Part shown: positions 7,047 to 60,353 of the stretch, piece after piece
How positions within the stretch are numbered: position 1 is the stretch's first letter
Layout of the letters: each line of letters begins with the position of its first letter
From: Candidatus Spechtbacterales bacterium
GTDB lineage: Bacteria > Patescibacteriota > Minisyncoccia > Spechtbacterales > 2-12-FULL-38-22
Assembly (NCBI GenBank): GCA_040879145.1
Contig: JBBDKX010000035.1
Location: 1,122 to 65,121, forward strand
DNA: 64,000 nt
Direction: 5' to 3'
Translations under genes and position numbers: made by a program
Notes under the pieces: model-generated
Seen by the model: the letters and a program-made list of their open reading frames with translations, nothing else
What the model was told of the DNA's origin: nothing
The model's database searches: none

Positions 7047-7535
7047 CTATTCTAATGTAATCTTCTCCGGAGATAAATCTTCAAACTGTTCTTTTGAGTA
7101 AACACCGATACCTCTTAGCTGATTTTCCTCTCGTGTACTTGTTGTAAAAAGAGTAATGTGAGGCAGTGGAACTTCCAGATCAAGTCCTAGGATCAAATTT
7201 AACTGCGTATAAAATGTGGCGATATCCGACAAATCTATTAACTGGATATAGGATTCTCTTATTTCTGGCTGCCCTTCATCACTCTTGCTATCTTCCTCTT
7301 CGTAGTTTTTAGTGATGTGATAATATTCGGGTTTGAAAGAAAAAGACTAATTTAAATCTTGTGCGAGTTGTTCGATTTTGTTTAACAGTTGTTTCTTTTT
7401 GTCTTCGGGGAATAAATTTAATTTTTCTAAAATAGCTTCACCGGTTCTGCTTCCAATTAAAGTGAGATGGAATTCACTCTTCTCAGAAAGCCCTTCAATT
7501 TCTGCCTGGTTCAAGACGGTAAAGGCTTCTCGGGA
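7047..7535 (-). pseudogene. 2H-phosphoesterase (LigT/ThpR-like 2'-5' RNA ligase) gene with in-frame TAG and missing 5' end
   Basis: my translation: ...SEKSEFHLTLIGSRTGEA...QDLN*SFSFKPEYYHITKNY...VPLPHITLFTTS...; two HxT/S motifs, one continuous frame interrupted by TAG at 7343-7345; N-terminus cut by repeat copy 2. Confidence 0.5.
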
Positions 7536-9689: not shown

Positions 9690-9727
9690 GTGTGTAGCCC
9701 GCTGTCATTTATGACAGCGGGCTTGCG

Positions 9728-9802
9728 TGCGCCCGGCTGGCTTTGAACCAGCGACCCCCACTTTATAAGAGTGGTGCTCTCACCAGACTGAGCTACGGGC
9801 GC
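9728..9802 (-). tRNA. tRNA-Ile (anticodon UAU)
   Basis: acceptor GCGCCCG/CGGGCGC, D-arm GCTCAGTCTGGTGAGAGC, anticodon stem CCACT/AGTGG loop CTTATAA (34-36 = TAT). Confidence 0.7.
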
Positions 9803-21438: not shown

Positions 21439-21440
21439 GG

Positions 21441-21478
21441 TTTTGTCCCGATACCACCCAAATCTTTGATTCGCTTGC
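21441..21478 (-). promoter_or_regulatory. conserved leader motif directly upstream of proS ATG (gcgaatcaaagatttgggtggtatcgggacaaaacc)
   Basis: near-identical motif precedes rpsK ATG at 34318..34356. Confidence 0.55.
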
Positions 21479-21557
21479 AGTATCGTGGATCCTCGACGCT
21501 ATAACAAAATCAAAGATTTTGATAGCGTCGGGATTCGCAAGCTCACAAAACAAGATT

Positions 21558-21650
21558 ACACTGATAACAACTGATACCACTGATGATTTTTACATGCATC
21601 AGCGTAATCAGCCATTATCTGTGATATCTAAGCGAGCGAAGCGAGCTTAA
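21558..21650. repeat. cactgatRa...gatgattttta repeat family copy 1
   Basis: similar to 31801..31895; ends in cgagcgaagcgagcttaa module. Confidence 0.55.
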
Positions 21651-22729: not shown

Positions 22730-22764
22730 TTTTAGGTTTTAGGTTTTAGGTTTTAGGTTTTAAG
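22730..22764. repeat. tandem aggtttt x5 immediately upstream of rseP start
   Basis: tttttaggttttaggttttaggttttaggtttt. Confidence 0.7.
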
Positions 22765-22793
22765 TGTAATACCTAACCCCTAATACCTAGAAC

Positions 22794-23342
22794 CTACTGC
22801 TCAAGTATCTCCCTCTCTCGCCCATCAATAGCTTCTTCTACTTTTTTGTTATACGCGTTTATCATATCCTGCAGAGCTTCTTTCTGTTTAAACTTCTCGT
22901 CTTCGGATATTTCTTTATTTTTTTCGGCGTCATCCAAGTCCTTAAGCGCTTCTTCTCTTATATTTCTCATACTTATGCGCGCGCTCTCGCCAAATTTATG
23001 AGCCTCTTTCGCAAGCTCTTTCCTTCTCTCTTCTGTAACAGGCGGCAAAGTAATACGAATAGAGTTACCTTCAACAACAGGATTAACATTCATGTCCGAC
23101 TGCCTTATCGCGTTTTGCACAGCGCCCACAAGAGCGGCGTCCCATGGCTGTATCAAAATCTGATTATTTTGCGGTATACTCACAGATGCCACCTGTTGCA
23201 GAGGCATTTTTGAATCATAAGCATCCACGGGAATATCTTCTACCATTCCCGCGTTAGCGCGCCCGACACGAAGACTTTTTAAATCTCCTGCCAGAACTTC
23301 CATCGTTTTTTCTAATTTTGGACTTATATCACTATTTTGCAT
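22794..23342 (-). CDS. frr: ribosome recycling factor
   Basis: Frr-family sequence, 182 aa. Confidence 0.85.
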   Translation of the reverse strand: MQNSDISPKLEKTMEVLAGDLKSLRVGRANAGMVEDIPVDAYDSKMPLQQVASVSIPQNNQILIQPWDAALVGAVQNAIRQSDMNVNPVVEGNSIRITLPPVTEERRKELAKEAHKFGESARISMRNIREEALKDLDDAEKNKEISEDEKFKQKEALQDMINAYNKKVEEAIDGREREILEQ

Positions 23343-26415: not shown

Positions 26416-26417
26416 AA

Positions 26418-26498
26418 AAAATAAATGGCTAAATGGTTAATTGTTAAATGGTTAATTATTTTTTACCAGCCATTTAGCCGTATAGCCATTTAACTATT
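26418..26498. repeat. AAATGGCTAAATGG-family palindromic element (copy 2)
   Basis: aaatggctaaatggttaattgttaaatggttaatt ... ccagccatttagccgtatagccatttaac. Confidence 0.6.
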
Positions 26499-26512
26499 AC
26501 GAGTACGGCTAT

Positions 26513-30764: not shown

Positions 30765-30894
30765 ATAAAAAGTATAGAGTATGCAGTATACAATATACAG
30801 GAGTGCTTTGTAATTAGCTTTGCTGAATACTCTATACTATATACTCTATACTTGAACGAGCGCGAAGCGTGAGTTTTAAGCTCGCTTCGCGAGT
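30765..30894. repeat. ~120-bp palindromic intergenic repeat, family A copy 1
   Basis: agtatagagtatgcagtatacaatatacaggagtgctttgtaattagctttgctgaatactctatactatatactctatacttgaacgagcgcgaagcgtgag. Confidence 0.8.
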
Positions 30895-31407: not shown

Positions 31408-31819
31408 CTATTAATCTCTTCATTCTGCCTTTTCTTAGGCGGTTGTCAGGCAACATTCTCTCAACGGCTTTTCTTATAACCCATGTAGGGTCCTTTTCGA
31501 ACATCTCCTCATATGTCTTGCCATAAATTCCGCCTGGATACCCTGAATAATGCCAGTAGATCTTGTCGGTCTTTTTCTTTCCTGTCACCTTGACCTTCTT
31601 GGCATTAACAACTTTGACGACGGTATCATCATCCATATTAGGCTTATAAGCAGGGCTGTGTTTTCCCTGCAAATATACAGCTATTTCCGTAGAAAGGCGT
31701 CCCAAAATCTGCCCCTTGGCATCCAGTTCAATAACCTCTTTCTTGCTTTCTGTTTTTTTTGAGGTTTTAGTTGTTATTTTCTTTTTACTCATATTTTTGA
31801 TTACACTATTTGATTGCAC
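31397..31819 (-). CDS. rplM: 50S ribosomal protein L13
   Basis: GQILGRLSTEIAVYLQGKH...PGGIYGKT. Confidence 0.95.
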   Translation of the reverse strand: MQSNSVIKNMSKKKITTKTSKKTESKKEVIELDAKGQILGRLSTEIAVYLQGKHSPAYKPNMDDDTVVKVVNAKKVKVTGKKKTDKIYWHYSGYPGGIYGKTYEEMFEKDPTWVIRKAVERMLPDNRLRKGRMKRLIVEK

Positions 31820-31895
31820 TGATGATAACTGATATCACTGATGATTTTTATCTGCTATCTGCGAAATCAGCTATTATCAGTGAAATCTGAAGCCT
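31801..31895. repeat. cactgatRa...gatgattttta repeat family copy 2
   Basis: cactgatgataactgatatcactgatgatttttatctgctatctgcgaaatcagctattatcagtg. Confidence 0.55.
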
Positions 31896-33048: not shown

Positions 33049-33219
33049 ATTTTTTATTTCCTACCTGCGTCGCATTTTGCAACACGGCAGGCAGGCGCTT
33101 CGCTCACATAACCGCTGATATATGCTAATTTTGCGGATTTTATGCAGATAGTATCCGCATTAATCTGCTTTAATCCGTATTAATCCGCGGTTTAAGCGAA
33201 GCGTTAGTGAGCTTAATTA

Positions 33220-33711: not shown

Positions 33712-33809
33712 AATAATTATTTGTGGCTAAGCCCTTTGGGCCGCCATCCCGGCCGTTAGGCCTAGGGACTTCACTCACAAATTTAGGATTTAGGAATTAG
33801 GAGATAGGA

Positions 33810-33862
33810 GTTAGCTTTTTTTACGTTTTCTAATTCCTATTTCCTAAGCCCTAATTCCTGCG
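33810..33862. repeat. tttttttacgttttctaattcctaWttYctaa...ttcctgcgagc repeat (copy 1)
   Basis: cf. 34487..34545. Confidence 0.6.
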
Positions 33863-34312: not shown

Positions 34313-34317
34313 AATTT

Positions 34318-34356
34318 TTTGTCCCGATACCGCCCGAATCTTTGATTCGCCTGCCT
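34318..34356 (-). promoter_or_regulatory. conserved leader motif directly upstream of rpsK ATG (gcgaatcaaagattcgggcggtatcgggacaaaaaatt)
   Basis: same motif as upstream of proS; preceded by CCTGCCTGCC hairpin. Confidence 0.55.
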
Positions 34357-34486
34357 GCCGGTTTACATGCCGATTGGCATGCAGGCAGGCTCACAAAAAG
34401 TGAACAGTAAGCAGTGAACAATTAACAACAGGGCTCCGTTTTTTCTTTTCTACTGTTTCCTGTTCACTGTTTACTGTTATCTGCGA

Positions 34487-34545
34487 GCTTTAGTTTTTTT
34501 ACGTTTTCTAATTCCTAATTTCTAATTCCTAATTCCTGCGAGCCT
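34487..34545. repeat. tttttttacgttttctaattcc... repeat (copy 2)
   Basis: gagctttagtttttttacgttttctaattcctaatttctaattcctaattcctgcgagc. Confidence 0.6.
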
Positions 34546-34615
34546 GTCTGCGTGCGTTCACCTGTCTGCCGTGCTTGCGGCACAGGTAGACGCACAGGCA
34601 GGCGTTAGTGAGCTA

Positions 34616-35631: not shown

Positions 35632-35742
35632 CACGAAAAGTACAAAGTATACAGTATTTGATATGCAGGGGTGCTTTATAATTAGCTTTGCTTAATACTA
35701 TATACTGCATACTGTATACTTGAACGAGCGAAGCGAGCTTAA
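35632..35742. repeat. family A palindromic intergenic repeat copy 2
   Basis: cacgaaaagtacaaagtatacagtatttgatatgcaggggtgctttataattagctttgcttaatactatatactgcatactgtatacttgaacgagcgaagcgagc. Confidence 0.8.
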
Positions 35743-45357: not shown

Positions 45358-46029
45358 TTACTTGGTAATATTGCTGATTAGCCACTCGGATAGTTCGTCC
45401 ATAAACTCAGGGTGTTTTTTAAAAATATCAGTACCATGACCGCCCTCCTCATAAATACGGGTCTTAACACGCTCTCCTCCGCAATCTGCTATTTCTCCTA
45501 CCGCTCTAAACGAATCTGGCACGTTTGGGTCGTCCTTTGTAGCAGCCATATATATCGCCTGACCGGCGCGTAATTTCTTAATCAAAGGCAGTGTTTCTAT
45601 GCCGTGATAATCAAACCCGGGAGAAAGAGCAAAACCGACCTGCGATTGCGGGTTTTGCGCCATATACTGTATAGACAAGTTTGCTCCTATAGACGCGCCA
45701 CCGACAACAATATTTTTAATTTCCACACCTTTATTTATAAAAAAATCCTGCGCAGCCAAAACATCAAACATTTTTTCCTGTTGCTGTTTGCTTGAAAATT
45801 CCCTGTAATCCAACTTCCCTCCTTGTGTACTTTCACCATGCCCGCGCTCGTCTATCGCTAAAACCTGAAATCCTTTTTCCAACAATAAAGACGCAAATTC
45901 ATCCCAACTCTCTTTGGTTGAAGGCATCATATGAAGCAAAATAACAGCAGGCGATGTTTCATCGCCTGCCGGATAGTAATCTCCTACTATTTTTATATTA
46001 TCTTTAGTTGTAAGCGTAACCTTTTCCAT
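45358..46029 (-). CDS. alpha/beta-fold hydrolase (dienelactone hydrolase/esterase-like)
   Basis: GxSxG nucleophile elbow GGASIG; catalytic Asp/His candidates. Confidence 0.7.
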   Translation of the reverse strand: MEKVTLTTKDNIKIVGDYYPAGDETSPAVILLHMMPSTKESWDEFASLLLEKGFQVLAIDERGHGESTQGGKLDYREFSSKQQQEKMFDVLAAQDFFINKGVEIKNIVVGGASIGANLSIQYMAQNPQSQVGFALSPGFDYHGIETLPLIKKLRAGQAIYMAATKDDPNVPDSFRAVGEIADCGGERVKTRIYEEGGHGTDIFKKHPEFMDELSEWLISNITK

Positions 46030-46032
46030 AAA

Positions 46033-47724
46033 TTATTCCCCAATCACCCCTATGTCTTTTAACAGATCCCTCAAACCCTCATTATCCGGGCCTTTTTTAT
46101 TTTTAGAATTTTTCTTTTCAACAGGAGGTTTACTTTCATTTTGAGGTTTTTTTTGTTGTTGTCCATCTCCAGCTTGAGGTTTTTTAGCCGGCGGGCCGTC
46201 GCCACGCTGAATAGGGCTTTGTCCTCGCGAAGGCGGGCGATACGGCTTCTGTTGGGGCGAGTCTGTCTGTGCACTACGCGAAGGCGGGCCGTCGCCACGC
46301 TGAAGCGAGCTTTGGCCTCGCGAAGGCGGGCGGTTTTTATTTAAATTGGGCGCTGGAAACTTCTGCATTGCCTCAGACATGCTTATTGGCTTTTCATTTT
46401 CTTTTTGCTCCTGCGCTTTTTTAGCAGGCACAGTAACCGGCCTCATCTTTGTGCTGACATCCCATTCTTGTATAACCTTCTCCATTTCTTGCCGTGAAGT
46501 TCCGTACTTATCGCGGGAACGCTTTATTATTTCTTCTGTCAATCTCTCCGCATGCCCGGGCTCAAGCGGGGCTATTGTGCGAGCGGCAAACGCGCGGTGT
46601 GTAATTCCGTCTATCATTAGCTTTAAAGCTATATTAAACTTGGGCAAGTTCACCAGATCGTCTACCATAAACTCGGGTGTAAACTCTTTCTCTATATGTT
46701 CTGCATCCTCAGCGCCTACCCGGAATGTAATAAACGTGCCTATATTACCGAATACGGCATCGCGCACTTCTTCATCCATTTGTGCTATATATTGGTGTGC
46801 CAAAATTAAGCAAAGGCGATACTTTCTCGCTTCTGAAAGTATTCCCTCAAAAGCCTCGGAGGCAAAGTTCTGGAACTCATCAACATAAAGAAAGAAGTCA
46901 CGTCTTTGGGCTTCGGGAGTGTCTATCCTGCTCATGGCCGCCAAATAAAGCTTTGTTATCGCCATAGCTCCAAGTAAACGGCTGTTATCCTCTCCGATGC
47001 GTCCCTTTGAAAGGTTCATAATAAATATCTTCCCGTCATCCATTATCTTTCTCATGTCTATGGTAGATACTTTCTGGCCCACAATATTACGAATTAAAGG
47101 AGCTGTTGTAAACTGCCCGATCTTATTTTGTATGGAAGCTGTAGCTTCAGACGCAAGCCGGTCTGAGTATTTCGCAAACTCTTCAAGCCAAAAGGAGCGC
47201 ACAATAGGGTCTTTCACATAGCTTAAAACCTCATTCCTGAAATTCTTATTAGCCATCATACGGTTAACATCCAAAAGTGTCGCGTCGGGATATTCAAGAA
47301 GAGCTAAAATTGTATTATTCAAAATATATTCCATTCTGGCGCTCCACACATCCACCCAAATTTTCTTAAACACACCCATAAGCCCGCTTGCCACAAGGTG
47401 TCTCTGGTTATATCCGACATCTTCAAGAAGATTTAAACCCATCGGAGCATCAGCATCAGCAGGATTGAAATACACAACATCGTCCATTCGTTCGGGTGGC
47501 ACAAAACTCAAAAGGGTCTCAGCAAATTCACCGTGCGGGTCTAAAATACCGAGGCCGTTCCCGTTTATAATATCCTGAATCGCCATATTCTGTATCATGT
47601 TCGTCTTACCCATTCCAGTCTTTCCTATGATGTACATATGGCGGCGGCGGTCATCAGTTTTTATGCCAAACCTGTCGCTGCGCCCCCTGTAATTCAATTG
47701 TCCAAAATAATTTATTTCTTCCAT
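46033..47724 (-). CDS. FtsK/HerA-superfamily P-loop ATPase (VirD4/TraD/VirB4-like, AAA_10/DUF87-like) with disordered repeat-containing C-terminus
   Basis: Walker A IIGKTGMGKT, ILDPHGEF, Walker B FFLYVDEFQNF, RKYRLCLILAHQ; ATG at 47724 (ORF-track N-extension is encoded by a CCTGCCTGCC hairpin). Confidence 0.65.
   Translation of the reverse strand: MEEINYFGQLNYRGRSDRFGIKTDDRRRHMYIIGKTGMGKTNMIQNMAIQDIINGNGLGILDPHGEFAETLLSFVPPERMDDVVYFNPADADAPMGLNLLEDVGYNQRHLVASGLMGVFKKIWVDVWSARMEYILNNTILALLEYPDATLLDVNRMMANKNFRNEVLSYVKDPIVRSFWLEEFAKYSDRLASEATASIQNKIGQFTTAPLIRNIVGQKVSTIDMRKIMDDGKIFIMNLSKGRIGEDNSRLLGAMAITKLYLAAMSRIDTPEAQRRDFFLYVDEFQNFASEAFEGILSEARKYRLCLILAHQYIAQMDEEVRDAVFGNIGTFITFRVGAEDAEHIEKEFTPEFMVDDLVNLPKFNIALKLMIDGITHRAFAARTIAPLEPGHAERLTEEIIKRSRDKYGTSRQEMEKVIQEWDVSTKMRPVTVPAKKAQEQKENEKPISMSEAMQKFPAPNLNKNRPPSRGQSSLQRGDGPPSRSAQTDSPQQKPYRPPSRGQSPIQRGDGPPAKKPQAGDGQQQKKPQNESKPPVEKKNSKNKKGPDNEGLRDLLKDIGVIGE
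46190..46332. repeat. two ~50-bp direct repeats inside the ATPase coding region (encode RPPSRGQSxxQRGDGPP twice)
   Basis: ggcgggccgtcgccacgctgaa...cctcgcgaaggcgggcg at 46190-46239 and 46283-46332. Confidence 0.75.
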
Positions 47725-47766
47725 GATTTTTGTTTCGCCTGCCTGCCGGCAGGCAGGGCTCCGCCT

Positions 47767-47895
47767 CACGAAAAGTATAAAGTATACAGTATTCAGTATA
47801 TAGGAGTGCTTTATAATTAGCTTTGCTTAATACTATATACTAAATACTGTATACTTGAACGAGCGAAAGGTGAGTTCCAAGCTCGCTTTGCGAGC
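47767..47895. repeat. family A palindromic intergenic repeat copy 3
   Basis: cacgaaaagtataaagtatacagtattcagtatataggagtgctttataattagctttgcttaatactatatactaaatactgtatacttgaacgagcgaaaggtgag. Confidence 0.8.
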
Positions 47896-49128
47896 TTATG
47901 TAGGCAATCCACTTGGTGGTTCCGATGTTCTTGAGGGCACTCTCGGCATAAGCGGGGCTCTTACTACCCTTCCAGGGAAATGATACATCGTAGCTATTTC
48001 TTCAGTACTCAAAACGTAGGGACTGGTGGCAAAATCAAGATACCTCCCTTTATAAGCTGCGAGTATATTGCGTTTGCGAATATAATTTCTAAACTTTTTA
48101 AAAAGAATAAGAGAACCTTTTGGAAAAGAACCTGAATGCGGACGAAAGCTATTTAAACCGCTAAACTGTCTAAGGTAGCCGTGCAAACCCGCGAGATGTT
48201 CACCGTGCCAGACATCTTTTCTTGCCACATAAACAGCGCGGAGCATGGTATTAAATTTAATTTTAGAATCTTTTATCTCAATTTTTTCTATATTCATACG
48301 CTCTCCTGGTGTCATTCGTGTCATATCACTTTGTGTTTTTTCAGGTTTTTTTTTCTGCCCGCCTCCACCAAAAGCGTTAAAAATACTTGTAAGCGGGTCT
48401 ACATATTTTGTACCCGAGTCCCTGCCTACCAGTTTATCTATCTCACTCTTTGCCTTGCCCTCAACTTCGCTAAGAACAGGGCTTATGACAACCTGCATCC
48501 ACATATGCTCCCCTTCTTCCATTTTAGAAACAAGTTCCGCGTACTGAGATATCGGGTCCATACGCCTGTCTTCATCCAAATCTTCAAACTCAATATATGT
48601 TCTTATAGGATAAACCCAACTTCTGTTAAGTGTATATTCCGCACCCCATACCTCATAACTCTCTCCGGGCACATCGGCAGGCAAATCCGCGGTATAATCC
48701 GGGACTTCTTCTATCGCGGCGTCAGAATACTGTGAATATACTTTAGATTCAACAAAATTACGCTGCGATCTTTTGCAGCGTATATAAAAATGCAACCTTC
48801 CGGCTGTTCCCACCATCTCAAGACTAAACCGGTCAATTACAACACCCTCTGTCCACTTTTCGCGGCTGGTTAGCGGACTCCAAACTCCGTGCAAGCCCTC
48901 AAGCACATTCTCCATAGCTTTGGGGGTTTTTAGAACATCCGGGGGTAAAGATACCTCGAGCACTATCCAGTCCAGTTTTTTAGAATATTGAGACCTTTTA
49001 TTGCGCAGATACAAAGGATGAACTTTTGAAAACAGGTAAAACGGAACTATGACCCACCAAGTGGCCTTAAATAAGTTCCATAAAATTAAACCTGCAAATT
49101 GTAGTATTTCTACCAGTGTAGAAGGCAC
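47896..49128 (-). CDS. hypothetical protein with N-terminal TM anchor (410 aa), upstream partner of the ATPase
   Basis: TM LVEILQFAGLILWNLFKATWWVIVPFYLF; GGGG/KKK-rich linker; no family recognised. Confidence 0.5.
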   Translation of the reverse strand: MPSTLVEILQFAGLILWNLFKATWWVIVPFYLFSKVHPLYLRNKRSQYSKKLDWIVLEVSLPPDVLKTPKAMENVLEGLHGVWSPLTSREKWTEGVVIDRFSLEMVGTAGRLHFYIRCKRSQRNFVESKVYSQYSDAAIEEVPDYTADLPADVPGESYEVWGAEYTLNRSWVYPIRTYIEFEDLDEDRRMDPISQYAELVSKMEEGEHMWMQVVISPVLSEVEGKAKSEIDKLVGRDSGTKYVDPLTSIFNAFGGGGQKKKPEKTQSDMTRMTPGERMNIEKIEIKDSKIKFNTMLRAVYVARKDVWHGEHLAGLHGYLRQFSGLNSFRPHSGSFPKGSLILFKKFRNYIRKRNILAAYKGRYLDFATSPYVLSTEEIATMYHFPGRVVRAPLMPRVPSRTSEPPSGLPT

Positions 49129-49140
49129 AACAGTAGCTCG

Positions 49141-49240
49141 CTTCGCGAGCAGGTTATAGGTTTTAGATTTCAGGTATCAGACTATCGCTTAATTTTTGAG
49201 TCTAACACCTATTACCTAACACCTATTACCTATCTTATAA
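49141..49240. repeat. aggttttag / taggtatcag / acacctattacctaac x2 leader repeat
   Basis: related segments at 22730..22800 and 60115..60195. Confidence 0.5.
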
Positions 49241-49243
49241 GGG

Positions 49244-50338
49244 TTATGCCAGGTAGTATTTATTGCCTTCGTCTTTCTTAAAGTGAGTTCTGTTCTGTAA
49301 ATTGAGCAAAATTGTATTTTTTTGCACTTTTCTCTGGTCCATTACACGATCCACCAAGACTTCTCTTTCTACCGGCTTTCCCTCTTCTTTTAATATGTTC
49401 ATTATAACATCTTTTACTGTACCAGGCATATAACCCCAGTTCGCAAGTGCGTAGATCCCCCGACCTATTAATACAAATCTTTCATCCTTTATAAGTTCGT
49501 TATGAACAGTTTGAGGATGAGTTTTTTTAGAATTTTTAAACCTAAAAGGAGCGTCGTCTATTCTGTGCGCGAGTTCTCTAAAATGAAGAGGATCTCCATG
49601 TCTGTGTAACACAAGAAATACCTTGTCTCTTACTCCGCGAGGTGTAATCTGGGGCCATTCAGCTAATCCCCACTGATTAAACGGACCAAGCTCTATCTTC
49701 TTAGAAGCACCTAAAAGTATATGTAGATTATCTTCAGTAACAGGCAGGAATTCTCTATTCGCCTCCTCAGCTTTAACCATAAGCTCTTCAGCATCTATGG
49801 GTTCGCCTGTCTTTTCCATGCTTTCAACAATGCCGGTCAAAAGTACTTTAACCTTTTCAGCACTTTCTTTGTTTACAGCCCAACTTGCCTGAAAATCATC
49901 GCTTTCTTTAATCTTTACAAAAGAGTCATTCAAAGCCAAAAGCAATGAGAGATATGGACGATGGGCATCAGAAGCTAAAGTTTCTACAAGAACTTCCTCT
50001 GACACAACACCGCAGTGTTCATTTAAATAATTATTTATCTCGTCAAAAGCGGGGGTAAGAAATTCATACTCAGCAGAATTTCTTATCTTCAAATAAGACG
50101 CCTCCTCTATCTGTCGCACCCTCTCCCTTGTAATATTATAAGCACCCCCGATCTTCTCGAGAGTTTGTCTCTCTCCACCTGTACCAATGCCGTGCCTTCG
50201 CGCGAGTATTGTGCTGTTTCTATCAGACAACACTCCAAGCGTTTTTCCTATAACAGGCTTTACATTGAGCTTTTTTACTTGAGTTGCTTGTGGCATATAA
50301 GTTAGTGGTTTACTTTTTACTTGTGTTTGACTTTTCAT
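49244..50338 (-). CDS. protein with sigma-70 region 4-like HTH near N-terminus, remainder unknown
   Basis: GERQTLEKIGGAYNITRERVRQIEEASYLKIRN; alternative start Met15 (50296). Confidence 0.55.
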   Translation of the reverse strand: MKSQTQVKSKPLTYMPQATQVKKLNVKPVIGKTLGVLSDRNSTILARRHGIGTGGERQTLEKIGGAYNITRERVRQIEEASYLKIRNSAEYEFLTPAFDEINNYLNEHCGVVSEEVLVETLASDAHRPYLSLLLALNDSFVKIKESDDFQASWAVNKESAEKVKVLLTGIVESMEKTGEPIDAEELMVKAEEANREFLPVTEDNLHILLGASKKIELGPFNQWGLAEWPQITPRGVRDKVFLVLHRHGDPLHFRELAHRIDDAPFRFKNSKKTHPQTVHNELIKDERFVLIGRGIYALANWGYMPGTVKDVIMNILKEEGKPVEREVLVDRVMDQRKVQKNTILLNLQNRTHFKKDEGNKYYLA

Positions 50339-50423
50339 AATTTAATCATACTTTTAAAATACTGTCAACACCCTTCATGCTTCCTTCCTCTTTCTGGAAG
50401 AACACTTTATGTCTTGCGACGGC

Positions 50424-51332
50424 TTAAGCTTTTCTCAAGCGCTCTGCCCAGCTAACAAGAATAGGGCTTGCTATAAAGATAGAAGAGTACGTTCCTATGG
50501 CAATACCTACAATTAATGTGAAGATGAAATTATGTATTGTTTCTCCCCCAAAAAAGAATACGGCAAAAAGAACAAGTAGTGTTGTTAAAGATGTGTTCAA
50601 AGATCTGACAACACTCTCTTTAACACTTGCCGAAACAAGTTCGTTAAAGTCTTTTTGGTTGCCAAAACGAAGTATATTCTCTCTCACCCTGTCAAACACA
50701 ACAATAGTGTCGTTTACAGAGTAACCCACTATGGTAAGCAGGGCCGCAATAAAAGGAACACCCACCTCTGTACCTTTAAAATGGGTAAATATTGCAAAAA
50801 ATCCAACCGTTATAATAACGTCGTGAAACAACGTAATTAAAGCGATGACACCATATCGCACGGAACCCAAAGGGTACGATATTCTGCGGAATGCCCACGC
50901 GACATAAACAACAATCATAGCAAGCACAAGCCCCATGGCCCAAGCGGATTTGCTTATTGTTTCACGGCCTATCACAGGCCCCACGCTTTGAAACTGTTTC
51001 TCTTCTACTTCAGCTTCACTTGCCTCGGTTATTTTAGCTAAAATCTCCTGGTGTGTTTCCTCATCAACATCGCGAAAACGCAAAATAAGAGAGTCGTCTC
51101 CTCCCTGTTGAATACTAATGCTTCCCAAATCAATATCACTCAAAGCGCTTGTCACATCCTCACGCGAAAGTATTGTTATATTGCCATCCTCATCCGGTAA
51201 AAAACCGACCTCCATCAAAGAGCCGCCTTTGAAATCTATACCTAAAGGCAACTTAAATACCGCGACTCCTATAATACTCACAGTTATAAGTACAGTAGAT
51301 AATATATAAAATATTTTTCTCTTTTCTATCAT
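50424..51332 (-). CDS. secF: protein translocase subunit SecF
   Basis: SecD/SecF family TM core, SVNDTIVVFDRVREN. Confidence 0.9.
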   Translation of the reverse strand: MIEKRKIFYILSTVLITVSIIGVAVFKLPLGIDFKGGSLMEVGFLPDEDGNITILSREDVTSALSDIDLGSISIQQGGDDSLILRFRDVDEETHQEILAKITEASEAEVEEKQFQSVGPVIGRETISKSAWAMGLVLAMIVVYVAWAFRRISYPLGSVRYGVIALITLFHDVIITVGFFAIFTHFKGTEVGVPFIAALLTIVGYSVNDTIVVFDRVRENILRFGNQKDFNELVSASVKESVVRSLNTSLTTLLVLFAVFFFGGETIHNFIFTLIVGIAIGTYSSIFIASPILVSWAERLRKA

Positions 51333-51341
51333 AATTAATAG

Positions 51342-52883
51342 TTAACGCGACCAGATAAATTTAATGGTTTCAAGTTTGCCTGTTAAAAACAACTTCATAA
51401 GATACTTTGTTACAACCATCGCGGAGAACATGCTAACAACAATACCCAGCCCCAGCGTTAAAGCGAACCCCTGCACGAAACTTGTTGAAAACCAAAACAG
51501 TATTACAGCAGTGAGCAGGGTTGATATGTTTCCGTCTCTTATTGAAGGCCACGCTCTTTCAAACGCCTTATCTACAGCATAAGACACATTTTCAACATCT
51601 CTTAACTCTTCCCGCAAACGCTCAAAAATAAGCACATTGGCATCTACGGCCATTCCAATAGACAGTATAAGACCTGCTATTCCGGCAAGTGTGAGTGTAA
51701 TAGGTATTGTCTTTATAAGCGCCAGGATAAACGCTATGTACATCAAAAGAGAGACAGCCGCTAAAAGACCGCTAAAACGATACATAATAACTATAAACGC
51801 GAGAACTGCCAAAACAGCTATGGCTCCCGCACGCAGGCTTGCCGCAAGCGACTCTTCACCGAGCGCGGCGCCTATTCTCTGTTGGGCTATAATGCTTATC
51901 GGAACAGGAAGCGCTCCCGCGTTTAGGTTTCGTACGAGCTCTCTTGCCTCATCTACAGTAAAGTTTCCGGTTATAACAGCTTGTCCGCCCGCTATTGCCT
52001 GGTTTACTGTAGGAATAGAAACAGGTGTTCCATCAAGATATATAGCAACTACAGAACCGATATTTCTCTTTGTTATTTCCTCAAACAACTCCGAACCCTC
52101 TTCATTAAACTGCAACCCTATTTGTAGCTCTCCGGTCTGCGGATGTGTCGTCACACTAGCCCTTTCTAAAAATTGTCCCGTGAGACTTGTACTTCTAAAA
52201 CACGGGTCTTCTCCGAGTATCTGGGTAAATGTCGCTATTCCCTGAGTATTGGCGCCGCTACAAATACTTGCAATCTGTTGGTCGCTAATCTCTCCTTGTT
52301 CTTCCACAAATCCGGATAAAACCTGAGACAGCGCCTGTTTTTGTTCTTCAAAAGGTCTTACCTCTTTGAACTCCAAAAACGGAGTCTGTCCTATTTGTTC
52401 TATGGCCTTATCCGGGTCGCTTATTCCCGCAAGTTCAACTATAAGGCGTGATGAATCATCACCCTGCTCTATTTGCACCACAGGTTCTGAAACCCCAAGG
52501 AAGTTAACTCGTCTTTCTATCGCGTCGCGTAAAGATTCCATAGCATCCTTCTGGTCGCTTTCTCTTATGCCGGAGAGATTGGCTTCATATACCAGGTGGA
52601 TGCCACCCTGCAAATCAAGACCTAAAGAGTAAGGACTTTCAGAGAATTTAGGAACGCGTGCAAAATTATCAATGGCGCGTAAAACTCCCCACTTGTCATA
52701 CTGTCCCACGTACCGGTTTGCATCTACAGCTTCCAGTTTAGGGTTTGACCAATCCGCAAACTGGTTCCAGTATTTAGGGTAATCTAAATTAGCCGCAAAA
52801 AATGCGGCAATCAAAATTAGAAATACAAATATCCAAGTTTGTCCTCTCTTTGTTGGTTTACGAAAAAGTCGCTTCAAAAACAT
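51342..52883 (-). CDS. secD: protein translocase subunit SecD
   Basis: GLDLQGGIHLVYE periplasmic domain, C-terminal 6 TM; ATG at 52883 (ORF track TTG start 52937). Confidence 0.9.
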   Translation of the reverse strand: MFLKRLFRKPTKRGQTWIFVFLILIAAFFAANLDYPKYWNQFADWSNPKLEAVDANRYVGQYDKWGVLRAIDNFARVPKFSESPYSLGLDLQGGIHLVYEANLSGIRESDQKDAMESLRDAIERRVNFLGVSEPVVQIEQGDDSSRLIVELAGISDPDKAIEQIGQTPFLEFKEVRPFEEQKQALSQVLSGFVEEQGEISDQQIASICSGANTQGIATFTQILGEDPCFRSTSLTGQFLERASVTTHPQTGELQIGLQFNEEGSELFEEITKRNIGSVVAIYLDGTPVSIPTVNQAIAGGQAVITGNFTVDEARELVRNLNAGALPVPISIIAQQRIGAALGEESLAASLRAGAIAVLAVLAFIVIMYRFSGLLAAVSLLMYIAFILALIKTIPITLTLAGIAGLILSIGMAVDANVLIFERLREELRDVENVSYAVDKAFERAWPSIRDGNISTLLTAVILFWFSTSFVQGFALTLGLGIVVSMFSAMVVTKYLMKLFLTGKLETIKFIWSR

Positions 52884-52937
52884 ACCTTGAATATGATAAT
52901 TAAGTTTACAAAGAAAATCAAGGGGGTTCATCCCCAA

Positions 52938-53012
52938 GCCGGTTCATTTTAGCCGGTCGGACTCTTTCTTCCGACCCCTTTACTTCCAACCTTACTATAA
53001 GTCCTATTCTTC
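52938..53012 (-). promoter_or_regulatory. promoter-like module with TA(A/T)AAT box, hairpin ggtcggaagaaaNagtccgacc and ATAGGAC 9-bp repeats, upstream of secD
   Basis: near-identical module at 53715..53813 upstream of ssrA. Confidence 0.5.
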
Positions 53013-53029
53013 AAAAACAAAAAGCACCA

Positions 53030-53285
53030 CATTTAAGTGGTGCGAAGAACATTAGGTGGCTGCACTCTCCCGTTACTCAAGCGGAAGAGTGCAGCATTTC
53101 CAACGCCGACAGCTTCGCTGTCGGGCATCCTCGATTGCTTTGCAATCGGGACAAGTGCCGAGGTCGGAAAAATTAGGCCGCGCGCCCCCGGAGAAAGGGT
53201 GAAGAGCCCAGAAGGGGCGCGCGACCTATAGGGCGAGTGCGACTCAGTGTCCGCCATCACAGTGAGAGCAGAACGGCACAGGCCC
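53030..53285. other. GC-rich 250-nt segment with 5+ stable hairpins immediately 3' of tmRNA; candidate structured RNA or terminator cluster
   Basis: gctgcactctcccgttactcaagcggaagagtgcagc, cgacagcttcgctgtcg, gcgcgccccc...ggggcgcgc, gcaccacttaaatgtggtgc. Confidence 0.3.
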
Positions 53286-53643
53286 TGGTGGAGGTGCCGG
53301 GAATTGAACCCGGGTCCGGCGTAATATTCATAAGCGTTTTAGTTTACGTGCGTTGACTCCGTAAAATTTCGGAAGGGTTATACAGAGACAGATTCACCTT
53401 TCCTATCCGTTGTTCAGTGTCCCTTGCAAAGCACTTCGGAAAAAGCTTTGCTTCGGCAAGCACTCTGGTTCTTCTTAGCTTAGAATGCGTGGGCTAAGAA
53501 GCTGGTTGCTCTTTCAGGCGGCAGCCAGGAGGCCTCTGCTATTTGTGGCAGTTATATGTTTCCAGCGACGGTTTACGAGCACACGCTGGTTTCTCGGCAC
53601 GAGTTCTTAGTTTCAACGACACCGTCGAGACCAATTCACCCCC
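53286..53643 (-). ncRNA. ssrA: tmRNA (SsrA), one-piece, CCA encoded
   Basis: 5' GGGGGUGAAUUGGUCUCGACG..., 3' ...GGACCCGGGUUCAAUUCCCGGCACCUCCACCA; acceptor stem pairs. Confidence 0.9.
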
Positions 53644-53714
53644 ATGAGTTTAAAGGTACAATTTGTGTGGACCGGTTTTTGACAGAAACCAGTCCGGAAA
53701 AACTGCGGCAAGTA

Positions 53715-53813
53715 TCAGTTGCCGGTTCATTATAGCCGGTCGGACTATTTCTTCCGACCCCTTTACTTCCAATCATCCTATAGGTCCTATTCGTCCTATA
53801 GGTCCTATTCTTC
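53715..53813 (-). promoter_or_regulatory. promoter-like module (TATAAT box + hairpin) with four ATAGGAC 9-bp tandem repeats, ~95 nt upstream of tmRNA 5' end
   Basis: ggaagtaaaggggtcggaagaaatagtccgaccggctataatgaaccggc; gaataggacctataggacgaataggacctataggat. Confidence 0.5.
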
Positions 53814-53935
53814 AGAAACAAAGGGGTTGTGGAGACACTTAAGGCGGTCTCCATTTGCCTTTCTTTGCTTTCTTCCTATATGGCAAAGAACTACACGTTT
53901 TTAGGGCGGTCTCTTCCGTGCGCCGCCAGGCCGCT

Positions 53936-54238: not shown

Positions 54239-54239
54239 T

Positions 54240-54560
54240 TCACCTCCTTAAGGTGTTGTGAAAGGTTCAAGGGAAGAGGTTTCGGAATAACTGCCGCGTT
54301 CGCTTTGTTATCCTACTTCCTCTCCCCCGCATTTAAACCCAGTCAAGTAATTCTGCCGCGGCCTGAGTGCTGGGTCACCCTCAAGCTGCAGAGCCGGTCA
54401 AAATTCGGACACCACTACCACCGACAGGCAATGTGGTTCCTACTCTGCTTCCTCAGAAGCATTCAGATAAACACAGTTCCTGTATTCATCTAAATACCGC
54501 CGATTATTAAAGATTGAGTGCCGCCGGCGCTCAATTCCAGTAAGCAGCAGACTACTGGAA
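54240..54560 (-). other. ~320-nt GC-rich highly structured leader/ncRNA candidate upstream of the 100-aa ORF
   Basis: 12-bp stem ccgccggcgctc/gagcgccggcgg with nested ccagta..tactgg hairpin, further helices. Confidence 0.35.
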
Positions 54561-54708
54561 GAGCGCCGGCGGAACCTGTAAGGATGTTAAACACCCCAAA
54601 CCTTAAGAACGAACTACATTATAGCATTTATGTATAAAAAAGTCAACACCCACGACACTATATAGAATGAATTCCTCATTAATTTTCAAATATGCTATAG
54701 TAGAACAT

Positions 54709-57733: not shown

Positions 57734-57795
57734 ACGGGTCACTGCACCTGCCTGCGCCGAGTGAAGCGCGGCAGGCAGGGTGACCCGCTTTTTTA
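57734..57795 (+). terminator. rho-independent terminator
   Basis: cgggtcactgcacctgcctgcgccgagtgaagcgcggcaggcagggtgacccg + T7. Confidence 0.8.
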
Positions 57796-57805
57796 TGTAC
57801 TAAAA

Positions 57806-57846
57806 CCAATAAGTCCTATAAGTCCTATTGGTCCTATTGGTCCTCT
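57806..57846. repeat. ATAGGAC-type 9-bp tandem repeats (x4) overlapping the M50 protease stop
   Basis: ccaataagtcctataagtcctattggtcctattggtcctc. Confidence 0.6.
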
Positions 57847-59252: not shown

Positions 59253-59385
59253 CACGAAAAGTATAAAGTATTCAGTATACAGGGGGTGCTTTGTAATTAG
59301 ATTTGCTGAATACTCTATACTATATACTGCATACTTGAACGAGCGTGAAACATAAGTTCTAAGCTTGCATGGCGAAGCGTCCGCT
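59253..59385. repeat. family A palindromic intergenic repeat copy 4
   Basis: cacgaaaagtataaagtattcagtatacagggggtgctttgtaattagatttgctgaatactctatactatatactgcatacttgaacgagcgtgaaac. Confidence 0.8.
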
Positions 59386-60114: not shown

Positions 60115-60195
60115 TTATTCGGTTTCGCCTCCTAAAACAGGTTTTAGGTATCAGCTATTAGGTACTGCACCAGTGTAATACCTATTACCTGCGAT
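60115..60195. repeat. aggttttag/taggtatcag/taatacctattacct leader repeat
   Basis: cf. 22730..22800 and 49141..49240. Confidence 0.5.
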
Positions 60196-60353
60196 GCTAT
60201 GCAAGCCTATTTATATGTTATCACTAAAACAGGTACATTCCAAATCAATTGCCGGTACTAACCCAAAAAAGGCTCAAATGAGCCTTTTTAAATGTTTCAA
60301 CCTACCTACGCCAATGCTTCGGCAGGCAGGCGCCGTGCCTCATGTTGAAACGT

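Follow-up and report, generated by a model that had tools for sequence, protein, structure and literature searches.

Gene order and the two cassette copies

The DNA analysed here, called the window throughout, is a 64-kb stretch of a Candidatus Spechtbacterales MAG (CPR/Patescibacteria, ~42% G+C); its SecD has 100% identity to a protein recorded for such a MAG. We know of no experimental work on transcription signals in these uncultured bacteria. In the direction of transcription, the minus strand carries a strong promoter, a structured leader, a 100-aa ORF, the tmRNA gene ssrA, a structured region with an intrinsic terminator, and secDF (Table 1). The string secD, secF, a protein with sigma-70 region 4 and HARE-HTH domains, DUF8128 and a TrwB/DUF87-type ATPase (45358-52937) is conserved in Spechtbacterales and was also seen in L087, L089/L090 and L001. 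The sigma70_r4 and HARE-HTH protein after secDF is syntenic in relatives. SecD relatives in a scan of GTDB genomes had at most 48% identity and came from Paceibacterota and Gracilibacteria. Further comparisons used two short Logan contigs of the same strain (L001 and L184, the latter from SRR27977663) and secD loci of relatives with 63-75% SecD identity, four of which included upstream sequence (L087, L088, L089/L090 and L091). Elsewhere in the window, a six-tRNA cluster found with ARAGORN includes a tRNA-Ile with anticodon UAU (9727-9802, minus strand), an anticodon uncommon in bacteria.

Table 1. Positions in the 64-kb window of the features discussed in the text
Feature	Position	Strand	Details
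Third ATAGGAC array	57806..57846	minus	3 perfect units and GTCCTCT; identical in L184
Strong promoter	54646-54618	minus	TTGACT-17-TATAAT with TG extension, 11/12; consensus scan
Strong promoter with structured leader	54239-54646	minus	leader ~370 nt, between strong promoter and 100-aa ORF
100-aa ORF	54238-53936	minus	no Pfam family
Weak hairpin	53830..53851	minus	GGAGAC-N10-GTCTCC, between 100-aa ORF and copy A
Cassette copy A (ssrA-proximal)	53721..53822	minus	T-tract, four 9-bp units, linker, hairpin, TATAAT, GAACCGGC
ssrA array, NN-ATAGGAC, 9-bp phased	53775..53808	minus	perfect cores 53784-90, 53793-99, 53802-08; ATAGGAT 53775-81
Palindrome/hairpin, copy A	53738..53759	minus	GGTCGGA-N8-TCCGACC, directly upstream of -10-like box
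-10-like box, copy A	53729..53734	minus	TATAAT (6/6)
tmRNA gene ssrA	53286..53643	minus	tag ATNSRGLLAAA; RF00023, 124.5 bits
Stable structured region and intrinsic terminator	53024..53285	minus	~240 nt structured, directly 3' of tmRNA
Intrinsic terminator	53024-53043	minus	good, with T-run
Cassette copy B (secD-proximal)	52938..53021	minus	T-tract, 1 perfect and 1 degenerate unit, linker, hairpin, TAAAAT, GAACCGGC
Palindrome/hairpin, copy B	52955-52976	minus
-10-like box, copy B	52946-52951	minus	TAAAAT (5/6)
Native secD core promoter	52893..52921	minus	TTGATT-17-TATCAT; -10 ends 8 nt before ATG at 52884
secD, secF, then sigma70_r4 and HARE-HTH protein	downstream of copy B	minus	sigma70_r4 and HARE-HTH protein at 49244-50338
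Inverted-pair array spacers, first part	21439-21646, 22730-22796, 26416-26512, 30765-30858, 31812-31884, 33118-33196, 33776-33862
Inverted-pair array spacers, second part	34398-34537, 35640-35722, 47772-47858, 49150-49236, 59256-59338, 60128-60196
CCTGCCTGC...GCAGGCAGG hairpins	~1800, 24240, 27590, 33060, 34350, 34550, 57750, 60300

A near-identical module of about 50 nt, which the earlier note had described upstream of both secD and ssrA, was found at 52938-52987 and 53721-53770, both on the minus strand, and nowhere else in the window. The 50-nt pattern shows no mismatch outside two degenerate positions and has no match in shuffled sequence. The two degenerate positions are a G/T in the hairpin loop and the change between TATAAT (ssrA) and TAAAAT (secD), which leaves the critical A2 and T6 of a -10 element intact. 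Upstream on the minus strand, the similarity extends past the module, takes in the repeats and reaches as far as the T-tract behind a hairpin; at the other end it stops sharply after GAACCGGC. The resulting cassette consists, in minus-strand order, of (NN-ATAGGAC)n, a 15-nt linker, GGTCGGA-N8-TCCGACC, TAWAAT and GAACCGGC. Its copies measure ~84 nt at secD and 102 nt at ssrA, are ~92% identical and are set apart by one 18-bp (two-unit) indel. Each lies upstream of its gene on the coding strand. The palindrome is predicted to fold at -12.4 kcal/mol (z -3.4) and is the same in both copies apart from one loop base.

The cassette is not an assembly artefact, because the array at the M50 protease gene is identical in the independent same-strain contig L184 and because the flanks of the module copies are unique and the copies themselves differ at ~7 positions. 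A coding origin was rejected: the ORFs at 53636-53854 (minus) and 53719-53904 (plus) are not common to the secD copy, and the minus-strand one extends into the tmRNA gene. Reading the module tail as an ECF-type (GAAC) or sigma-54-type element was tried by eye and dropped too, as the copies have no common matching downstream element. The module and the 3' structured region are complementary over 28 nt (75%), which was judged to be borderline chance.

Further copies of the module were looked for and none was found beyond the two in the window. The pattern GGTCGGA-N8-TCCGACCGGCTAWAAT had no match in JGI metagenome contigs, a looser version had none in viral contigs, and the module was absent from 594 kb of other fetched loci. 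With two copies and no conservation outside the strain, selection is inseparable from recent duplication.

The copies enclose a 783-bp segment made up of ssrA and its 3' structured region, and ssrA is a classic integration hotspot. They might be recombination sites that flank a mobilised segment, with a 7-N8-7 core and arm-type direct repeats or with IS200/IS605-like subterminal hairpins. The 7-bp inverted repeat with its 8-bp spacer does, as we see it, resemble tyrosine-recombinase core sites, direct repeats flank ssrA, and a highly structured RNA adjoins one end of the segment. Nevertheless, we regard this explanation as very improbable. Neither the segment nor the whole window contains an integrase or TnpA/TnpB gene, the repeats lie on the same side in both copies, unlike attL and attR, and the repeat is outside ssrA itself. 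Pfam searches with the window ORFs of at least 90 aa returned no integrase, transposase, RAYT, TnpA/TnpB or RHH/HTH regulator; the only related matches were the sigma70_r4 and HARE-HTH protein and GreA. The cognate DNA-binding protein that the earlier note had suggested looking for was not found among the window ORFs.

ATAGGAC arrays in a repeat-rich genome

ATAGGAC occurs 14 times in the window against 5.2 expected occurrences, a count reached in none of 100 shuffles, and seven of the 14 fall into three arrays with exact 9-bp phasing. Tandem 9-bp units had been noticed before, and the three exactly phased arrays bear this out. The two units ascribed to the secD copy were a generous count, since one is perfect and the other is ATAGTAA (5/7). 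Other details of that description need correction. Each unit has a 7-nt core and 2 variable nt, where ATAGGAC N3 had been given; the minus-strand location of secD and ssrA means that a transcript-oriented reading meets the repeats before the module instead of after it; and it is the module, rather than the array, that contains the -10-like box. At ssrA, the array is actually an 18-bp unit present twice (period 18, 100% matches). The core is invariant in the seven perfect units at three loci, while the 2-nt spacers vary (GA/CT, CA/TT), a pattern that fits common descent as well as selection for a binding motif. The cassette arrays keep a distance of at least 108 nt from the secD ATG and at least 132 nt from the tmRNA 5' end. 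They are located 41-79 nt upstream of the -10 hexamer, i.e. at about -48 to -86 relative to the start inferred from TATAAT.

The third array was likewise present where it had been reported, with three perfect units and one 6/7 unit. It covers the last codons of the M50 protease gene together with its stop, and is followed by a hairpin (57735-57786, -39/-43 kcal/mol) flanked by an A-run and a T-run, which we take for a bidirectional terminator between convergent genes. This spacer contains neither a promoter-like site nor a copy of the module. Lying in a convergent, terminator-containing spacer without a promoter, this array is not tied to promoters. Three-unit ATAGGAC matches at 83 viral loci were set aside as mostly collagen-like coding repeats unrelated to the window array: 170/187 matches lie in long open frames, and 120/187 read G-P-I in frame.

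Short-period repeats are a general feature of this DNA. Defined by a period of 6-12 and at least 2.5 copies, 26 tandem arrays were counted in the window, whereas Markov simulations gave 2.0 on average and never more than 4. Non-coding sequence, which makes up 16% of the window, holds 19 of them. Most are inverted pairs of 7-10-bp units arranged round a family-specific AT-rich centre, so that they form predicted hairpins of 70-95 nt (z -2.6 to -9.9) without strand bias and with ends resembling GCTCGC.../...GTGAGC. Unit families such as AGTAT, GAATTAG, TAGGT and CATCAGT recur at two to four loci each, and arrays fill the spacers of the rpsM-rpsK-rpsD-rpoA-rplQ-rplM cluster. Some abut start codons, for instance at 22730 in the window and at 7255-7294 of L002, a distant Paceibacterota genome in which a similar element (7204-7294) adjoins the start codon. 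The spacer at 34313-34615 apparently has one array element abutting or nested in another. GC-rich hairpins of the type CCTGCCTGC...GCAGGCAGG, a REP-like or terminator family, also recur, often at gene ends.

Within this inventory the ATAGGAC arrays are unlike the rest in having a 9-bp unit, in being direct only and in lying away from start codons. The ATAGGAC repeats are one family among the pervasive short-period intergenic arrays of the genome. As such arrays occur genome-wide, one of the ATAGGAC type is no mark of ssrA or secDF. We did not find a description of such phased short repeats in Patescibacteria in the full-text literature. Their density in the spacers is unusual, more so than the cassette itself. 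The cassette offers a useful way into this larger and more interesting feature.

Transcription signals of ssrA and secD

From the upstream hairpin down to the mature tmRNA 5' end, the TATAAT of the module is the only good -10, or sigma-70-like site. A shared promoter-like module had been proposed, and a -10-like hexamer does stand upstream of both genes on the coding strand; what is missing is an acceptable -35. At ssrA the best candidate is TCGGAA (3/6), 17 nt from TATAAT, the site did not appear in the consensus scan, and the -10 has no TG extension. The position that the -35 and the spacer would occupy is taken by the palindrome, as it would be by an operator. Moreover, TATAAT is 85 nt from the mature tmRNA 5' end, whereas the -10 is roughly 25-45 nt away in other ssrA loci (91 loci retrieved from metagenomes via the common tmRNA 3' end, a mixed sample of distant taxa). 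Other RNA genes of the lineage have near-consensus TTGACA-17-TATAAT promoters (window 54646; L087, L089 and L092).

ssrA might instead be reached from further upstream. No convincing terminator separates the strong promoter and the 100-aa ORF from ssrA, so that read-through into the tmRNA gene is possible. The weak hairpin in front of copy A is not convincing as a terminator. Its 5' arm is kept in L092, the closest relative on the ssrA side (71% ORF identity), which also conserves leader, ORF and the non-coding sequence beyond; only the first 8 nt of the hairpin are on the L092 contig, which stops just short of the expected array position. The cassette could accordingly be a transcribed spacer or processing signal in a precursor that runs from the strong promoter through leader, ORF and ssrA to the 3' structure. 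The high score of that promoter (11/12, with TG), the lack of a good terminator before ssrA, and a 13-bp stem CCCCUUUGUUUC / GGAAGUAAAGGGG enclosing the ssrA-copy array in a region that folds with z -3.6 speak for it. However, the enclosing stem is lost in the secD copy (fold z -1.85), which also follows a strong terminator and would hence be outside that transcript, and the array at the M50 gene is without such stems. We hold a role in a precursor to be improbable.

Two further structured regions were observed around ssrA. The region directly after the CCA end of the tmRNA (53045-53285, minus strand, ~240 nt) has a predicted energy of -133.6 kcal/mol (z -8.15), matches no Rfam family and has no sequence homologue in the relatives; it may be a new RNA co-transcribed with ssrA. 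The leader upstream of the 100-aa ORF is 75% identical to L092 131-573, with 8 compensatory pairs among 111, and the Shine-Dalgarno region is paired with the 5' end of the leader. Absent from Rfam, the leader is a candidate riboswitch-like or cis-regulatory RNA.

secD appears to have a promoter of its own, which lies between copy B and the gene. In three genomes the secD -10 ends 8-9 nt from the start codon (window 52882-52921; L089 1520-1578; L091 505-557), with TTTACA-17-TAATAT 8 nt from the start in both L089 and L091. The start codon itself is supported by the N-termini of homologues. A promoter at this conserved position suggests a leaderless or near-leaderless secD mRNA. The same spacing between -10 and start was seen at alaS (41510).

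Neither the module nor the array was present upstream of secD in any of the four relatives. Compared to L087, which aligns best (72% identity), the secD copy is a 76-nt insertion, on either side of which the two genomes align: the terminator of the upstream RNA gene on one side and the block from CCCCTTGATTTT to TAYCATATT by the start codon, which contains TTGATT-17-TATCAT, on the other. Because these 76 nt were found only in the window, we regard the secD copy as inserted secondarily, in front of a native promoter that was left intact. It has the weaker -10 and fewer repeat units than the ssrA copy, and its borders show neither terminal inverted repeats nor a target-site duplication. In L088 another heptamer array, AATTAGT x3.6, occupies the corresponding site between terminator and secD promoter, which speaks for a turnover of arrays here without conservation of their sequence. 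Long GC-rich, apparently structured non-coding regions were noted just upstream of secD in the relatives (L087 1630-1960, L089 640-1400 and L091 100-400). They are bounded by a consensus promoter and a terminator and gave no Rfam or tmRNA match; the one in L089 is partly duplicated at 150-540, terminator included.

An insertion in front of an already sufficient promoter is also what might be expected of a non-promoter repetitive element, REP/MITE-like or mere structural filler, that spread by duplication or gene conversion; TAWAAT would then be AT-rich sequence that lies between GC-rich stems by chance. The surroundings speak for such an element. Short-period arrays number 26 where about 2 would be expected, and 19 of the 26 are intergenic; palindromic elements with heptamer arms are numerous and CCTGCCTGC hairpins recurrent, extending even into the rpsM-rplM cluster; and one ATAGGAC array stands by itself beside a terminator. 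By our estimate, TAWAAT would arise by chance in about 5% of 50-nt stretches of this composition. On the other hand, just two copies of the module exist in 64 kb, the insertion borders lack the repeats that transposition could leave, and no transposase or RAYT gene was found in the window. In addition, both copies are alike in orientation and in position relative to the downstream gene, and ssrA is without any other promoter candidate. A non-promoter repeat is a serious alternative, but in our judgement an unlikely one.

A possible duplicated promoter and related systems

We tentatively favour the view that the cassette is a lineage-specific, recently duplicated non-coding promoter cassette of ~85-100 bp that is reused before ssrA and secD, although our confidence in it is limited. 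The near-identical copies with a sharp end at GAACCGGC, both facing a gene, point in this direction. So do the -10 substitution that keeps A2 and T6, the lack of another sigma-70-like site for ssrA, the stable hairpin that differs in one loop base only, the insertion of the secD copy relative to L087, and the constancy of the ATAGGAC core at three loci while the spacers differ. This reading is weakened by the absence of a -35 and of a TG element when RNA genes of the lineage are near consensus, by the 85 nt to the tmRNA 5' end compared to 25-45 nt elsewhere, by possible read-through from the strong promoter, and by the third array with its lack of promoter context.

As a promoter cassette, the ssrA-proximal copy would be the -35-less promoter region of the unit formed by ssrA and the 3' structured RNA. 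The palindrome over the -35/spacer position would serve as operator for a dimeric factor, and the phased 9-mers would act as upstream activator or UP-like sites from about -48 to -86. The same cassette would then have been copied between the terminator of the ssrA unit and the native leaderless-type promoter of secD. At most, it could contribute a weaker promoter (TAAAAT, 1-2 units) there, from which transcription would pass through the native one downstream.

A common regulator, which the earlier note had deduced from the arrays, is not borne out, given that arrays are found genome-wide, that the third one lacks a promoter and that no cognate protein was detected. The co-regulation of secDF and tmRNA that was to follow from it fares no better, as secD has its own promoter at the ATG and the cassette is an insertion absent from four relatives; co-regulation of protein export and trans-translation is a possibility that the sequence raises. 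If the cassette is an active promoter, a reduced CPR genome offers here a clear natural example of a promoter that was copied, and a single control element would govern both trans-translation and SecDF. A bolder proposal would join the ATAGGAC arrays and the heptamer-arm palindromes into one genome-wide Paceibacterota system of family-specific phased binding arrays, located in intergenic spacers that include those of ribosomal-protein genes, acting at the DNA or RNA level and sorting genes into co-controlled sets, with ssrA and secDF as one address. We consider such a system rather doubtful.

Ribbon-helix-helix proteins are known to bind tandem short operators, for instance the omega heptads of pSM19035, ParR/parC of R1 and the met-boxes of MetJ. 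The cassette resembles these operators in its contiguous phased repeats with a conserved core and variable spacers near a promoter-like region. It deviates in its 9-bp period and in the location of the arrays upstream of, rather than over, the -35/-10 region; the genes are chromosomal housekeeping genes, one array is away from any promoter, and neither an RHH gene nor another cognate gene was found near the cassette. The two versus four upstream units of the cassette copies are reminiscent of promoters tuned by repeat number, such as the TTTTGAT heptads of ctxAB and the 7-bp repeats of hmw1A in H. influenzae. The one further sample is of the same strain and has the same sequence; the difference in unit number is one between the two cassette copies.

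The closest published parallel to the spacer arrays is the TAACTGA heptamer repeat, described for Beggiatoaceae, Cyanobacteria and Bacteroidetes, which is likewise found near start codons and within operons for ribosomal proteins (PMC4679880). Like genomes with these repeats or with cyanobacterial STRR, the genome described here is rich in intergenic short arrays, ribosomal-protein clusters included. In contrast, the ATAGGAC unit has 9 and not 7 nt, lies away from start codons and is one of many unit families, and most of the other arrays here are inverted pairs that form long hairpins.

Highly similar promoters before unrelated genes of one genome have a precedent in the reuse of promoters, or putative mobile promoters (PMC3575422). 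Our cassette differs from those cases in having two known copies, no -35 and a putative promoter activity, and at secD it lies upstream of an intact native promoter instead of replacing it. It agrees with them in that similar -10-bearing sequences precede two unrelated genes, with 50/50 identity at the specified module positions upstream of the non-homologous ssrA and secD, and in that one of its copies, the one at secD, is demonstrably a secondary insertion.
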